Positions 7,692 to 58,512 of a stretch of 64,000 nt of DNA are shown here, piece after piece; within the stretch, counting starts at the first letter, position 1; each line of letters opens with the position of its first letter. The stretch is from a virus: the UHGV virus genome UHGV-2031204; one strand, written 5' to 3'. Made by a program: the position numbers and the translations under genes. Under the pieces are notes generated by a model that worked only from the letters and a program-made list of their open reading frames with translations, searched no databases and was not told the DNA's origin.

Positions 7692-7742
7692 AAAAGATTA
7701 CCCTACTCCCGGAGGAGTAGGGTAACTTTTATTATTTTTTCT
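7691..7742. terminator. bidirectional rho-independent terminator between convergent genes
   Basis: Hairpin TTACCCTACTCC-CGGAG-GAGTAGGGTAA flanked by A-run upstream and T-run downstream. Confidence 0.7.
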
Positions 7743-17409: not shown

Positions 17410-17448
17410 CAGATATATATTACCTAGGTGAGATTACACAGTAATCTC
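17410..17448 (+). promoter_or_regulatory. conserved promoter-like motif plus dyad (copy 1)
   Basis: CAGATATATATTACCTAGGTGAGA followed by palindrome GAGATTAC-ACA-GTAATCTC; immediately after terminator, before gene 17484. Confidence 0.5.
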
Positions 17449-25665: not shown

Positions 25666-25704
25666 CAGATATATATTACCTAGGTGAGAGTTTACGTAAT
25701 ACTC
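25666..25704 (+). promoter_or_regulatory. conserved promoter-like motif plus dyad (copy 2)
   Basis: 24/24 identical core CAGATATATATTACCTAGGTGAGA, then near-palindrome GAGTTTACGTAATACTC; upstream of small membrane protein gene. Confidence 0.5.
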
Positions 25705-25735: not shown

Positions 25736-25879
25736 ATGATTTCTGTAAAACACAAAAAAGCTATCTTCGCTGTTGTTATCGCTGTTGTTCTGGGTTGCCT
25801 GTATCTGGACATCGACAAAGGCTACGACACTTGCATCGACAACGGTAATTCCGTTGCACAGTGCACTGGTCGTGGTTAA
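25736..25879 (+). CDS. small single-pass membrane protein (47 aa), strongly codon-optimised
   Basis: AGGAG RBS, ATG 25736; hydrophobic helix AIFAVVIAVVLGCLYL; sits between conserved promoter motif and terminator; shares LYLD..K.Y motif with 62281-62478. Confidence 0.5.
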   Translation: MISVKHKKAIFAVVIAVVLGCLYLDIDKGYDTCIDNGNSVAQCTGRG

Positions 25880-25884
25880 TGTAT

Positions 25885-25917
25885 AAGGCACCTTCGGGTG
25901 CCCTTAATTTTTTTATT
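25885..25917 (+). terminator. rho-independent terminator
   Basis: GGCACC-TTCG-GGTGCC then TTAATTTTTTTATT. Confidence 0.7.
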
Positions 25918-25933
25918 AATTGGAGCATAAAAG

Positions 25934-26749
25934 ATGATTACCATTAAAGATTATTTTCCGCGTGGACTGAGCAATGAAAACTTCGTTCCAACTGAAGACA
26001 TTGCCATCGTAACAGAGTCTAGTGATAAGTCTTTTAAACTCTACTTGAGTACGGCAGCAGGAAAATCCACTCTTATCCTTCGCGAACCTGAAGTGATAAG
26101 CATCTGCTCGTTTGGGGGTGGTGTAGAAGGAACGATTAATTGGTTGAAATCCAGAATGCATCGTTTGCTTATCGTGAACACCGATCCTGTGATTCGTTTA
26201 CAGCAATTGAAATCGTTGAATGAAGTTATCGTCGGATTATTGGAACATGAAACGTTCGGTAATGCAGCGATTGCGGAAGAGATTAAATCTGTAGAACTAA
26301 TCGAGTGGAGTGATATCGAATACGAACGTGCTGCGTTATTCGCAATGTACGGTGACGATAATCCTGTTGTGTTTGCACAAACATTAGATAACGTTACAGT
26401 AACAGCGCGCGTATTGTTTGGCTTACAGCGTGTTGAGTTTGAACTGAAACACGTTTATGTAAGTAATACTCCAGAGATGGTGGAAACGTTGACTCGTGCG
26501 TTCGCTTACCCGTTAGACGGAGAATGGGAACAGCAGATTAATGAAGCGTTAGGCGCGATGCTGTTCTTAGCAGGCACACTAAGGAAAGAAGAGAAATTAG
26601 AAGGTCGTGTTTATCCAGAATACGATTTTGTTTGTGAAGAATGTGGAGCACAGTATCAAATACGTGTTCCTTTAACCGGCCTGACAATCCCGAAAGCCAA
26701 CGTGCAATGTAAGGAATGTGGCCATGTTCAATACGTAGCGACTAAATAA
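25934..26749 (+). CDS. hypothetical protein with C-terminal zinc-ribbon (CxxC...CxxC)
   Basis: CEECG...CKECG pair at C-terminus; GGAG RBS. Confidence 0.55.
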   Translation: MITIKDYFPRGLSNENFVPTEDIAIVTESSDKSFKLYLSTAAGKSTLILREPEVISICSFGGGVEGTINWLKSRMHRLLIVNTDPVIRLQQLKSLNEVIVGLLEHETFGNAAIAEEIKSVELIEWSDIEYERAALFAMYGDDNPVVFAQTLDNVTVTARVLFGLQRVEFELKHVYVSNTPEMVETLTRAFAYPLDGEWEQQINEALGAMLFLAGTLRKEEKLEGRVYPEYDFVCEECGAQYQIRVPLTGLTIPKANVQCKECGHVQYVATK

Positions 26750-26755
26750 AAGCAA

Positions 26756-26798
26756 CCCCTAATCCCGAAAAGGATTAGGGGTACACTTTATTTATTTT
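26756..26798 (+). terminator. rho-independent terminator
   Basis: CCCCTAATCC/GGATTAGGGG stem then T-rich run. Confidence 0.65.
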
Positions 26799-26800
26799 CG

Positions 26801-26890
26801 CAAATTCAACAACTTGGATTAAATAAAAGGCTTAAAGCCACTAACAATCATCGAGTACAGATCTTCACCGAAAGGAGAAGTAACTACTAA
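26801..26890 (+). pseudogene. degenerate remnant of small-protein module (no start codon)
   Basis: Translates to ...QLGLNKRLKATNNHRVQIFTERRSNY, similar to C-terminus of 27047-27220 product, but no in-frame ATG/GTG. Confidence 0.3.
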
Positions 26891-27046
26891 ATAAAATAAA
26901 GGGGTGTGACAGCACCCCTTATCAAAGCTTTAACTTTTCGAAAAGAGAAGTTAAAGCAGGGTACGCTGTAGCACCAGCGTACCCTTTACAGCACCACCAC
27001 GTTTCCGTAGTGGATTTCTTTAATCACCCTACAAAGAGGGCTTACC

Positions 27047-27220
27047 ATGAACAATGGTTACTACTTTACTGACAAAATGCTTGCAGAACAGAGTGCAGCA
27101 AAGACCAATTTACAGCAACGTATCTACAAGTATAGTCAGCTCGGCATGGATAAACGGTTAAAACCGTCTACCAACCGTTTCACGCAGATATTCACCGAAA
27201 AGAGGAGTGAACACTACTAA
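27047..27220 (+). CDS. small protein (57 aa), member of tandem paralog module
   Basis: AGAGGG RBS; C-terminus ...TNRFTQIFTEKRSEHY parallels remnant at 26801-26890; below ORF-track size cutoff. Confidence 0.4.
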   Translation: MNNGYYFTDKMLAEQSAAKTNLQQRIYKYSQLGMDKRLKPSTNRFTQIFTEKRSEHY

Positions 27221-27445
27221 CAAATAAAGAGGAGGCGTGTCAGCGCCTCCCCTCCTCGTACAGTAACCTGCCGAGATGGTGGTCGTAGGTATAATAAAAA
27301 GGGGTGCACCACCACCCCTTTTCTTAGCTTTAACTTTTCCGAAGAGAAGTTAAAGCAGTAGAGACTGTTCCATCAGTCTCTACTGTACGGTGACAACGCA
27401 TAAAGTTGTTGACGTTTTTACAACATTACAAAAGGTAATGAAAAA

Positions 27446-27607
27446 TGAACGAATATCAAATACAGATGTTCAATACCGCGATGCGAAATCGTGAAAAACA
27501 AATTCAGTTTAACCAACGCATGGACGAATATGTTCGTCTCGGCCTCGTTGCGGCACCGAAAACGGTTAACAATCACAATGTTCACCAACCACCTGTAAGG
27601 AGATAAG
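27446..27607 (+). CDS. small protein (53 aa), diverged member of tandem paralog module
   Basis: AAAGG RBS; shares (Q/R)LG(L/M)...TxNNH block with neighbours; followed by hairpin. Confidence 0.35.
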
Positions 27608-27749
27608 TTACTAACTAATAAAGGGGGTGGCAGCAACACCCCCTACTTAGTTCAGTAGTTGTTTCCCGTTCATAATTAATAGCCTTCTGTTTTTTTTTGT
27701 TTTTCGAGACGCATAAGGGGTCATAAGGGGGAGCCGAAGCTCCCCAGAC

Positions 27750-29312
27750 TCAAAAGAGTTCGTCACCCATGCCGCCGGTAAATACGTTAATCGACGAGGC
27801 TGTTACAGTTTCTTCTTTATCACAATCCCATGGCAAAATGCCAACATCACGGAAAGGTATTACAGTATAATGATAAGCTTCTTTGGTATCAATAATGGTA
27901 CGGTGTTTACCGCGTTGTACTTCTAAATAGCTGTGTCCGCTGACGACACGTTTGTTAAAATACATCTCACCGTCAGCTTCGTTGTCTAAGCTAGAGCAGT
28001 TGTCGTAAAGACCACGACCAGGTAAGCTCTTACAGAAACTTGCTGGGTCGAGTGCTTTTAATTTTTTGCCTTCTGGTGAGATTTGGTGTGGTGCTAAGAG
28101 GAAACCACGATTACGTACCACTTGGATGTTTCGCGCGATACGATAAATTTCTTTAATGTCACTACCCGCAATACCGTTACCGTGCCCTGCTTTGCTGATA
28201 GTACCGAAATAGTCTCCGCGTATTCCAGCTACATGATAACCTCGACGTTTTAGATCTAAAATCAAATCATTCAAATAGTGAATTTTAAAATCGGAGTTTG
28301 TGTGTTTTTGGAAAATATACTCCCAACCGTTTGCCCGCATTTTACTACAGAGGTAATCTGACATTTGTGCATTGTGTAGCGCTTTTTCTTCGTCAGTTGC
28401 CGTTTCAGGTGCAACCATTACCGGAGCTGTACCTTCAAAGTGTCCGTAAAGTGCTTGATACGCGTAAGCCAAGTTAACATCTAATTCGTTTTCTAAACTT
28501 AAATCCAGAATAACCGGTTGTAAGTCACCTTTAACATTTGCCATCACCTTTTCTGGGGTGTTGAATACAGGAATGCTAATAGAGAGCAATAAACTGAATA
28601 ATGACTTACAGTTAAAGGGTAGTGCGGGCATTAGCCAGAGTTCTTCGGTGATCCCTTTGTTACAGCCAAGCATTTGGTTAATTGCTTTCCACCCCGTACG
28701 TAACCCATTACCTGCCGCTTTCTTACTGATAGAGTCGAATACATGTACGAAGGGTGCTTTATTGTCAGTAATCAATTCCCCTACCAGAGAAGGAATCTTA
28801 TTATGAGAGCGTTCACTGAACGTGGATAAGGTATCCTTAAGGTCGTTGAGCGCCGTTTGTAAATCAACACGCGTTTCAGTGCCGTTCAGTGCGCCTAACG
28901 TACGACCCAATTTTTGTTTCAGTTGTACGCCTTGAATAGCTTGACGTAACTGAAAGTAGTATTGTGCTACTTGGCGATTAAGATGCTCGATGCGTGCTTC
29001 TGGTTCTTCTGGAATATCATCTTCCAGGAATTTGGTAATCGTATCGTATAGAGGACGTATTTGCGTAGTGGCCAGTTTCAAACGTTTCATGACGTTTGTG
29101 TGGTCGTAAGGCATACCGCCGTCTATGATGGATGTGATGATATCCTTGATTTCGACGAGGGCGGCACGTTCGTCACCTTCTTCTGCGTAATCAGGAAGCT
29201 TAGCCTCTAACAGCACTTTTCTTATGATGTCGTGGTCCTTTTCAGGATCGGTCAGAAGACTTTCAGCGTATAATGTGGCTAAGGCGGTTATCAACATCAT
29301 TTTGTTATTCAT
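27750..29312 (-). CDS. hypothetical protein (520 aa) with hydrophobic N-terminus
   Basis: Long minus-strand ORF; N-terminal MNNKMMLITALATLYA; divergent from 29326 gene with 13 bp spacing. Confidence 0.55.
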   Translation of the reverse strand: MNNKMMLITALATLYAESLLTDPEKDHDIIRKVLLEAKLPDYAEEGDERAALVEIKDIITSIIDGGMPYDHTNVMKRLKLATTQIRPLYDTITKFLEDDIPEEPEARIEHLNRQVAQYYFQLRQAIQGVQLKQKLGRTLGALNGTETRVDLQTALNDLKDTLSTFSERSHNKIPSLVGELITDNKAPFVHVFDSISKKAAGNGLRTGWKAINQMLGCNKGITEELWLMPALPFNCKSLFSLLLSISIPVFNTPEKVMANVKGDLQPVILDLSLENELDVNLAYAYQALYGHFEGTAPVMVAPETATDEEKALHNAQMSDYLCSKMRANGWEYIFQKHTNSDFKIHYLNDLILDLKRRGYHVAGIRGDYFGTISKAGHGNGIAGSDIKEIYRIARNIQVVRNRGFLLAPHQISPEGKKLKALDPASFCKSLPGRGLYDNCSSLDNEADGEMYFNKRVVSGHSYLEVQRGKHRTIIDTKEAYHYTVIPFRDVGILPWDCDKEETVTASSINVFTGGMGDELF

Positions 29313-32227: not shown

Positions 32228-32250
32228 GGATAGATATTATTAAAGGGAGA
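32228..32250 (+). promoter_or_regulatory. possible diverged copy of promoter-like motif
   Basis: GATAGATATTATTAAAGGGAGA after terminator 32173-32215. Confidence 0.3.
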
Positions 32251-53188: not shown

Positions 53189-53226
53189 CAGATATATTTT
53201 ACTTAGGTGAGAGTTATGATTAACTC
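53189..53226 (+). promoter_or_regulatory. conserved promoter-like motif plus dyad (copy 3)
   Basis: CAGATATATTTTACTTAGGTGAGA then GAGTTATGATTAACTC; between terminator and HTH gene. Confidence 0.5.
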
Positions 53227-58480: not shown

Positions 58481-58512
58481 AAGATATATTTCATCTATGT
58501 GAGAATTCTCAC
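58481..58512 (+). promoter_or_regulatory. conserved promoter-like motif plus dyad (copy 4, diverged)
   Basis: AAGATATATTTCATCTATGTGAGA overlapping perfect palindrome GTGAGAATTCTCAC; upstream of gene 58536. Confidence 0.45.

Follow-up and report, generated by a model that had tools for sequence, protein, structure and literature searches.

The window analyzed here is a 64,000-nucleotide (nt) stretch of viral DNA, UHGV virus genome UHGV-2031204, and the element in question is a tandem array of small genes and RNA hairpins at positions 26,756 to 27,749. The array lies between a plus-strand gene for a 271-amino-acid (aa) protein (25934–26749) and a minus-strand helicase gene (27750–29312), an interval whose longest open reading frame (ORF) is 73 aa. 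From sequence comparison, we give a probability of roughly 0.6 to the reading that this locus is a hyperplastic cassette array of small accessory-protein genes, shuffled in modules in the manner of the promoter early stem-loop (PeSL) elements of T4-type phages and set between a homologue of SPN3US gp70 and the helicase. A first-pass annotation had described repeated small-ORF and hairpin units here. Beyond it, we find that the locus is recombinationally shuffled, that the copy in the window is a mosaic with two deletion remnants, and that a gene-specific fourth hairpin, D, stands ahead of each intact gene.

Reading the array on the plus strand, the first gene-derived segment is psi-b (26801–26890), a startless 3′ remnant holding codons 28–56 and the stop of a type-b gene (translation QLGLNKRLKATNNHRVQIFTERRSNY*), with 86% identity to type b residues 28–56 by tblastn and a match to the family profile at E = 2.5e-11. 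It is followed by GC-rich hairpin A1 (26898–26920; −14.8 kcal/mol), which has an A-tract in front and lacks a good plus-strand T-tract behind, and by hairpin B1 (26927–26957; −15.6 kcal/mol), an AU-rich linker stem of 13 bp with an invariant U·G pair. Hairpin C1 (26958–26985; 11 bp, −19.5 kcal/mol) abuts B1 and is the variant that accompanies type-2 genes; the type-2-specific leader hairpin D1 (26994–27013) carries a C·A mismatch here and is a perfect 8-bp stem in relatives. The intact type-2 gene (27047–27220) encodes 57 aa behind the Shine-Dalgarno (SD) site AAGAGGG (27034–27040). GC-rich hairpin A′ (27226–27255; −16.7 kcal/mol) stands 3′ of it, and is followed by psi-x (27256–27288), a deletion remnant that keeps the last 11 codons and stop (SYSNLPRWWS*) of a type-x gene and aligns by tblastn with residues 51–61 of type x, of which an intact gene is present in a related locus, L005. 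Next come the bidirectional terminator-like hairpin A2 (27297–27322; AAAAGGGGTG...CACCCCTTTT), the second linker hairpin B2 (27327–27356; −14.4 kcal/mol), hairpin C2 (27356–27385; 12 bp, the variant accompanying type-3 genes) and the type-3-specific leader hairpin D2 (27390–27414; loop CATAAAG). The intact type-3 gene (27445–27606) encodes 53 aa behind the SD site AAGGT (27432–27436), and terminator-like hairpin A3 (27622–27644) separates it from the convergent helicase gene.

The coding tails, ORFs, A-rich tracts, GC-rich hairpins, hairpin B and third hairpin that had been annotated earlier were all found at the positions assigned to them, as were the 57-aa and 53-aa ORFs with their ribosome-binding sites. 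The count of three units needs revision: the repeats are real, and they comprise four gene-derived segments, the fourth being psi-x. Likewise, the first unit is startless as described, but it arose as a deletion remnant, with ~386 nt missing relative to arrays like that of L023, and not by point mutation of a start codon.

The structure of the array goes far beyond chance. Compared with dinucleotide shuffles, the two intergenic blocks have folding z-scores of −8.0 and −9.4; terminator-like sites exceed expectation five-fold (12 against 2.4 ± 1.5), and the hairpin B arms (GCTTTAACTTTTC-loop-GAGAAGTTAAAGC) have two matches in the window and none in 100 shuffles. Each of the hairpins A1, A′, A2 and A3, at −14 to −17 kcal/mol, is preceded by an A-rich tract of AATAAAG type, and the stop codons lie only 8–17 nt ahead of hairpin A. 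From stop to start the layout reads TAA ATAAAATAAAG ... hairpins ... AAGAGGG N6 ATG, and it is the same in 37 linker copies.

These 37 unique copies of the A-B-C linker, extracted from 34 arrays of related phages, served as the covariation set. Under the proposed structure 97.3% of cells are paired, compared with 43–58% when partners are slid, and 10–12 of the 30 pairs show compensatory changes, with ten pairs altered on both sides. Covarying pairs are frequent in hairpin C (7/11) and fewer in hairpin B (2/13), and an independent RNAalifold prediction recovers these three hairpins. Compensatory change thus maintains hairpins A, B and C. Conservation in related phages, whose absence the first-pass annotation had named as grounds for giving up its proposal, is therefore established for the hairpins at the RNA level. 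Strand asymmetry places them on plus-strand RNA: G·U cells number 67 in 12 pairs against 8 A·C cells in 4 pairs, and the covariance model scores 108 bits on the plus strand and 33–41 on the minus strand. Hairpin B itself is more stable on the plus strand (−15.6 versus −10.9 kcal/mol for copy 1; −14.4 versus −11.5 for copy 2), and its U·G pair is invariant in 37/37 copies.

Among near-identical phages (loci L004–L057), the loops of hairpins A, C and D occur in both orientations, as exact reverse complements. Examples are TGACAG/CTGTCA, TAGCAC/GTGCTA, CCTATA/TATAGG and TTTC/GAAA, corresponding to window positions 26898–27013 and 27297–27414. Such flips are small hairpin-mediated inversions, as in other palindromes. 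Hairpin B is inverted in no copy, and its loop varies among GAAA, GAAAA, CAAA, CGAA and GGGA. Because the loops of A, C and D flip and B never does, we conclude that A, C and D are selected as stems, whereas B is constrained in sequence and orientation.

Hairpin B is confined to this locus. The linker has two copies in the window, both at the array, and the three related IMG/VR contigs that carry hairpin B (152–225 kb, two of them near genome length) carry it at a single locus. A scan of the viral collection returned 16 matches, 12 of which were rejected as non-palindromic chance matches in unrelated contigs. Searches of Rfam 15 gave best scores of 24, 17 and 15 bits, below the respective gathering thresholds of 42, 95 and 376 (E 0.13–0.36), and a scan of the region for tRNA and tmRNA genes found none. 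A tRNA-like or intron origin of the three hairpins was rejected, given stems of 11–13 bp and no match by ARAGORN or Rfam. A dnaX-like frameshift site, suggested by the succession of an SD-like motif, an A-run and a hairpin, was also rejected: the stop precedes the A-run and there is no conserved slippery heptamer.

The small genes form one family and, judged by their substitution patterns, code for protein under purifying selection, which bears out the earlier proposal that they are paralogous. The window ORFs, the remnant, the ORFs of relatives and SPN3US gp71 and gp72 align together around a shared core of roughly KQxxFNQRxxExxxLGL, and the ~222-kb clade to which this phage belongs has five types, labelled a, b, x, 2 and 3. 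The ratio of nonsynonymous to synonymous substitution rates (dN/dS) is 0.14 for type 2 (7 alleles), 0.11 for b, 0.27 for x and 0.41 for type 3, variable sites are concentrated at third codon positions, and differences between type-3 orthologues are mostly synonymous. A family profile built with gp71 and gp72 retrieves types 2, 3, a, b and x at E values of 1e-11 to 1e-21; within the window, a profile search finds family members only at the array. Pairwise, the type-3 protein matches the 48-aa SPN3US protein MEQLRSQ... (gp72) at E = 6e-4. SPN3US gp71 and gp72 match phrog_18219 at E of about 1e-27 and type a matches it only weakly, while the two window ORFs and type x have no match in a PHROG search. 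Since the window ORFs miss the PHROG model on their own, we regard them as distant members of the phrog_18219 family.

By sequence, the family appears confined to this jumbo-phage clade. A profile search of 5.8 billion clusters matched 61, whose longest contigs are nearly all of jumbo-phage size (215–245 kb) or fragments and whose sources are E. coli, Shigella and Salmonella assemblies and SPN3US-like Salmonella phages. An exhaustive profile search of 1.84 billion representatives returned 13 proteins, 12 of them family members; the single match outside the clade is a repeat protein that we judged spurious. Searching phages by tblastn with the two window ORFs gave chance matches only (E ≥ 1), and the small proteins found nothing in Pfam, nor in the PDB by sequence profile search. 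AlphaFold predicts a single helix over residues 3–31 (mean predicted local distance difference test score, pLDDT, 75), and the remainder, a basic tail, has no regular structure in the model, where confidence is low. The proteins are hydrophilic, consisting of one amphipathic helix and the basic tail. We infer that they are dispensable accessory factors, possibly early gene products acting in host takeover or counter-defense.

Two further features of the gene ends were observed. The last codons of the small genes (CGAAAGGAGAAGTAAC; 26869–26884 and 27196–27211) resemble the loop and right arm of hairpin B (CGAAAAGAGAAGTTAA; 26939–26954), a resemblance that may reflect alternative pairing, history or chance. 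In 7/8 family tails, including those of SPN3US, an SD-like GGAG lies 8–25 nt ahead of the stop, although different amino acids are encoded there in SPN3US.

The shuffling of cassettes is most evident from the arrays of relatives. Between the same two anchors we found 32 distinct arrays of 668–1329 nt, with the cassette orders a-3, a-2, a-b-3, a-x-2, a′-b-x-2, a(frameshifted)-b-2, psi-b-x-psi-3 and psi-2-x-3, next to psi-b-2-psi-x-3 in the window. The commonest order recovered, a(frameshifted)-b-2, occurs at nine places, with at least 15 similar besides. Type x precedes type 2 in some arrays and follows it in others (x→2, 2→x), a set that no series of deletions from a single linear ancestor can yield. 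Proteins can also be chimeric: P0050 joins a b N-terminus to a type-2 C-terminus, and P0016 is type a with the tail of x. Hairpin D and the variant of C are always those of the downstream gene type, the A variant and spacer accompany the upstream gene, and B is common to all.

The window array is itself a mosaic of psi-b, type 2, psi-x and type 3. Window positions 26772–26811 correspond to 2–41 of L023 and 26805–27228 to 428–853 of L023; a 386-nt deletion across the 7-nt microhomology TTCAACA (26805–26811) took out type a together with the 5′ portion of type b. The right-hand part, 27256–27745, corresponds to 370–857 of L005 at 94.9% identity, only the last 11 codons of the type-x gene being left. 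Seoulvirus lacks a repeat of the linker between its two small genes (covariance model scores of 20 and 15 bits), and its array holds two genes in 10/10 places sampled, as expected if the repeated linker drives plasticity. Erwinia phage phiEaH2 and phage Asesino have no small genes at this position, and their convergent gap is about 110 nt.

On the reading we favor, each cassette would begin with a plus-strand RNA leader, hairpin C and the gene-specific D, followed by an SD site and a gene of 50–60 aa whose product is predicted to have an N-terminal helix of ~30 residues and a basic tail. An A-rich stop region and GC-rich hairpin A, which has the form of an intrinsic, often bidirectional terminator, would close the cassette, and the nearly sequence-invariant hairpin B, with its AU-rich 13-bp stem, would join it to the next. 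The A-B-C linker, ~100 nt long with roughly 85–95% identity between copies, would be the sequence over which homologous recombination acts, both between cassettes and between co-infecting phages, and such recombination would reassort, duplicate and delete cassettes. Hairpin A would attenuate or terminate transcription in both directions within the convergent gap; many intrinsic terminators are used by related giant phages, in which 15 of the >100 mapped terminators are bidirectional (PMC11512511). Hairpins B, C and D may protect or punctuate the mRNA, as candidate 5′/3′ stabilizers or processing sites. The suggestion of a processing-site array made in the first-pass annotation is a possible one.

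The nearest candidate start for plus-strand transcription toward the array is an early-promoter-like motif, AGATATATATTACCTAGGTGAGA, at 25667–25689. This 23-nt plus-strand motif occurs exactly at 17411–17433 and 25667–25689, with near-copies at 53190–53212 and 58483–58504 and a weaker one at 32229–32250, against 0 copies expected by chance. It was found by reading the intergenic gaps; exact k-mer counting revealed no promoter motif. Its copies sit in intergenic gaps upstream of plus-strand genes, and its 3′ GTGAGA forms the left arm of the hairpin that immediately follows. It resembles the AT-rich class of early promoters of the virion RNA polymerase described for phiKZ-like phages (PMC7598289). 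The motif is probably an early promoter read by such a polymerase, with transcripts that would start with a 5′ stem-loop. One copy lies ~45 nt upstream of a 47-aa ORF that precedes the 271-aa gene. The 47-aa ORF (25736–25879, plus strand) is conserved, has a hydrophobic stretch (AIFAVVIAVVLGCLYL) and its own terminator at 25887–25902, and is called as a 47-aa gene in relatives also. Another candidate promoter, TTATGCGT, present in the D2 loop and in the element downstream of the helicase on the minus strand and containing the phiKZ late TATG core, was rejected (3 found against 2.9 expected).

Several observations weigh against the cassette-array reading. The motif AGATATATATTACCTAGGTGAGA has no match within 26750–27750 at up to 3 mismatches, sigma-70-like sites there are at chance (5 against 6.3 ± 2.2 in shuffles) with none conserved, and two terminator-like hairpins stand between the motif and the array; the cassettes may be transcribed by read-through or from an unrecognised middle or late promoter. 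Most A hairpins in the window carry their T-tract on the minus strand and not the plus strand, so that as canonical terminators they would better stop antisense transcription or read-through from the helicase; in relatives, about half of the A hairpins have at least 4 Ts on the plus strand also. Half-compensated B variants (A·A at columns 60/78) could be point mutations and not crossovers, so that crossovers within B can be placed only tentatively. Metagenome assemblies of repeats can be chimeric, a worry countered by the recovery of the same architectures in many independent assemblies and of relatives as closed circular records. Finally, the near-invariance, fixed orientation and invariant U·G of hairpin B suggest a sequence-specific role beyond that of a recombination linker or stabilizer, and this strict conservation leaves room for three of the alternatives weighed below, in which B is an operator, a recombination site or part of a small RNA (sRNA).

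The hairpin clusters A–D, excised from the array transcript or transcribed on their own, could be stable, trans-acting structured non-coding RNAs that, for instance, titrate a host or defense RNA-binding protein, with the ORFs secondary. The modules are indeed very stable and maintained by covariation, B has the invariant sequence, fixed orientation and invariant U·G expected of a recognition element, and giant phages do produce sRNAs derived from 5′ untranslated regions (PMC11512511). We nevertheless hold this improbable: no Rfam family matches above chance level, no promoter motif lies ahead of the modules or, for separate transcription of an sRNA, inside the array, C and D segregate together with the downstream gene as ordinary leaders do, and the loops of A, C and D flip freely, contrary to loop-specific recognition. 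Purifying selection on the ORFs means that they are not secondary. The decoy and antitoxin-like roles proposed in the first-pass annotation likewise found no supporting evidence, the proteins being unlike type I toxins; a type I toxin or small toxic peptide with an antisense RNA was rejected on account of their hydrophilicity and because no conserved antisense promoter was found. If B were instead an operator, a site at which an RNA-binding regulator, possibly the array proteins themselves, controls the translation or stability of every cassette mRNA in a regulon or autoregulatory loop, its standing as the sole element that is conserved in sequence and never inverted, its U·G invariant in 37/37 copies and its confinement to the locus in the window and three related IMG/VR contigs would follow naturally, and a long helix with a basic tail would suit the binding protein. 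The array proteins, however, have no homology to a known RNA-binding protein or solved structure and are not markedly arginine-rich, the B loop varies, and SPN3US retains the genes with at most a weak B-like hairpin; we consider an operator unlikely. In site-specific exchange of the kind seen in integrons, single-stranded DNA would fold at B, a phage recombinase or structure-specific nuclease would cut and rejoin it there, and cassettes would move as units. Cassette boundaries do coincide with B, the upstream and downstream halves reassort freely, and the loop inversions in A, C and D imply that the palindromes extrude or template-switch at the DNA level. The outer arms of B, CTTTAAC / GTTAAAG, also agree at 6/7 positions with what we take to be the attC core consensus, RYYYAAC / GTTRRRY, a lead and not a test. 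But within 2.5 kb of each locus there is no integrase or recombinase domain, B at 31 nt is shorter than known attC sites, and the asymmetry of G·U over A·C speaks for RNA rather than a DNA site, whether double-stranded or on the bottom strand. Several rearrangements lie away from B, inside ORFs, as plain deletions across microhomology, and ordinary homologous recombination over the ~100-nt linker suffices for the shuffling; site-specific exchange is very unlikely. Taking the last two ideas together, we rate it rather unlikely that B is a dedicated recognition element, whether for recombination, as an attC-like site, or for regulation, as an RNA operator to which the small proteins of the array bind. 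If it were, the array would be a self-contained cassette-exchange and control system for diversifying jumbo-phage micro-proteins, and an integrase-less, RNA-structured analogue of the integron in a clade that transcribes with its own polymerases.

Two alternatives concern transcription itself. The hairpins might act mainly as an insulator that stops convergent transcription, with helicase read-through on the minus strand facing the gp70 operon on the plus strand and the ORFs as tolerated passengers. The array sits exactly in the convergent gap, and canonical-terminator scores among its hairpins number five on the minus strand and one on the plus strand. An insulating role is very improbable as the main one, since phiEaH2 and Asesino cope with the same gap of about 110 nt without an array, the ORFs are under purifying selection, B energetically favors the plus strand with G·U pairs outnumbering A·C across A-B-C, and B, C and D lack T-tracts on either strand. 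Alternatively, the small ORFs might be leader peptides, regulatory upstream ORFs whose translation controls formation of the downstream hairpin. Their stops do lie just 8–17 nt before hairpin A, and the ORF tail (GGAGAAGTAAC), being similar to the right arm of B, might pair with the left. Yet no regulated gene lies downstream, the array ending at the convergent helicase, and the amino-acid sequences are conserved over their whole length; in addition, transcription and translation are kept apart in space in nucleus-forming relatives, as is established for Chimalliviridae, and may be so in this phage. We regard attenuation as extremely unlikely.

Among known systems, the array most resembles the PeSLs of T4-type phages, described as 'mobile regulatory cassettes' that undergo modular shuffling in hyperplastic regions and form excised mini-circles during infection (PMC2839356, PMC4122927). 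As in PeSLs, a conserved composite intergenic element of ~100 nt starts in an AT-rich stop region, includes a GGGG...CCCC stem-loop and extends to the SD site and start of the next ORFan; the genes at its sides are small, non-essential and located in a plastic region. Among close relatives the flanked ORFs are inserted, deleted or replaced and linkers are chimeric, and the GC-rich stem-loop (A1, A′, A2, A3) has by sequence the form of a terminator. Unlike PeSLs, the array element lacks a sigma-70-like promoter or phage early-promoter motif, has two or three extra covarying RNA hairpins (B, C, D) and occurs at one locus, whereas PeSLs are dispersed over many hyperplastic regions; it flanks paralogues of one family and not unrelated ORFans. 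The SPN3US-related clade, unlike the PeSL-bearing T4-type phages, probably transcribes with multisubunit RNA polymerases of its own. We do not class the array as a PeSL, since its element lacks a promoter and copies are not scattered over the genome.

The closest counterpart by descent is the pair of tandem 48-aa genes for gp71 and gp72 (SPN3US_0071/0072; phrog_18219) between gp70 and the helicase in SPN3US, which share the protein family, syntenic position and orientation of the array genes. In SPN3US a GC hairpin follows each gene, and a weak B/C-like hairpin pair lies ahead of gp71. In contrast to the array, SPN3US and Seoulvirus are fixed at two genes with no repeated conserved B linker between them, and protein identity between the window genes and gp71/gp72 is only about 20%. 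In the SPN3US literature checked, including PMC5105663, we found neither a function nor a mention of gp71 or gp72.

Integron arrays share with this locus tandem promoterless small cassettes, each bounded by an imperfect palindrome, and a cassette content and order that differ between close relatives. Integron attC sites are 57–141 nt long, have R″/L″-L′/R′ boxes and extrahelical bases, and fold from the bottom DNA strand. The array palindrome is 31 nt and behaves as a plus-strand RNA structure, plain microhomology deletions occur in the array too, and no integrase Pfam match was found within ±2.5 kb in any locus, the search covering these flanks and not the rest of the genome. With no integrase nearby, a palindrome of only 31 nt and RNA-level asymmetry, the array is not an integron. 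Stable, GC-rich and often bidirectional hairpins right after stops also recall phage terminators and stabilizers of the repetitive extragenic palindrome and bacterial interspersed mosaic element (REP/BIME) type; here, however, three or four different hairpins form one ordered module, and hairpin B is, unlike a generic terminator, sequence-invariant, AU-rich and fixed in orientation.

The flanking genes identify the lineage of the phage. On its left the array is bounded by the conserved gene for the 271-aa protein, a homologue of SPN3US gp70 (E = 1e-10, BLASTP) with weak Zn-ribbon Pfam matches; SPN3US gp70 itself is an essential, non-virion protein (PMC5105663). The convergent helicase is DnaB-like and replicative (PF20307), with 83–85% aa identity to those of Erwinia phage phiEaH2 and Salmonella phage SPN3US. 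With one flank a gp70 homologue and the other the helicase, the array occupies a convergent gap between two conserved genes. The helicase identity and a major capsid gene of phiKZ type place the source among jumbo phages of the SPN3US/phiEaH2 lineage; it is an SPN3US-related phage of ~222 kb infecting Enterobacteriaceae. The region has no match in INPHARED phage DNA (50,697 records, near and distant modes), and the clade is without a representative in that collection. Close relatives are contigs of 215–228 kb from gut metagenomes and from E. coli and Shigella assemblies. Complete bacterial genomes also include relatives of the phage, filed as circular 'plasmids' of non-mobilizable type: NZ_CP173450.1 (221,873 bp; E. 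coli strain 98232) and NZ_CP134650.1 (222,441 bp; Enterobacter ludwigii). Their deposition in this form suggests a carrier state, pseudolysogeny or co-purified phage DNA.

A bidirectional terminator-like hairpin follows the 271-aa gene (26753–26784; stem of 11–12 bp with an A-run before and a T-run after) and is called on both strands (−19.3 kcal/mol on the plus, −19.8 on the minus). The right boundary of the array is an element 3′ of the helicase stop (27705–27745; GACGCATAA...GGGGAGCCGAAGCTCCCC) that is kept across three genera, this phage, SPN3US and phiEaH2, as GACGCATAA...GGGGAGCC(G/T)AAGCTCCCC. A long plus-strand T-run precedes it, the adjacent sequence is not conserved, and it lies at about 5575–5615 in L002 and about 5575–5610 in L001. 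Elsewhere in the window, a bidirectional terminator-like palindrome, TTACCCTACTCC ... GGAGTAGGGTAA, has two copies 5.4 kb apart (2340–2367 and 7698–7725), both between convergent genes. Among relatives, the major capsid gene is called at 683 aa in L040 and L042, with a start ~230 nt later, and at 761–764 aa in L041 and L043–L047; the difference could be an indel or frameshift in the start region or a difference in assembly.

If the cassette-array reading is right, it would extend genome plasticity by conserved linker plus ORFan from T4-type phages to the SPN3US-related jumbo clade, with the new feature that the linker is a covarying multi-hairpin RNA module and not a promoter-terminator pair. 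It also draws attention to an uncharacterised clade of ~222-kb enterobacterial jumbo phages that is present in many gut metagenomes and in 'plasmids' of E. coli and Enterobacter genomes. The locus may be useful for asking how structured leaders serve phages that may separate transcription from translation. Dozens of near-identical genomes that differ only in the micro-protein cassettes they carry amount to a natural experiment, which makes this family well suited to tests of accessory functions, host takeover and counter-defense among them.

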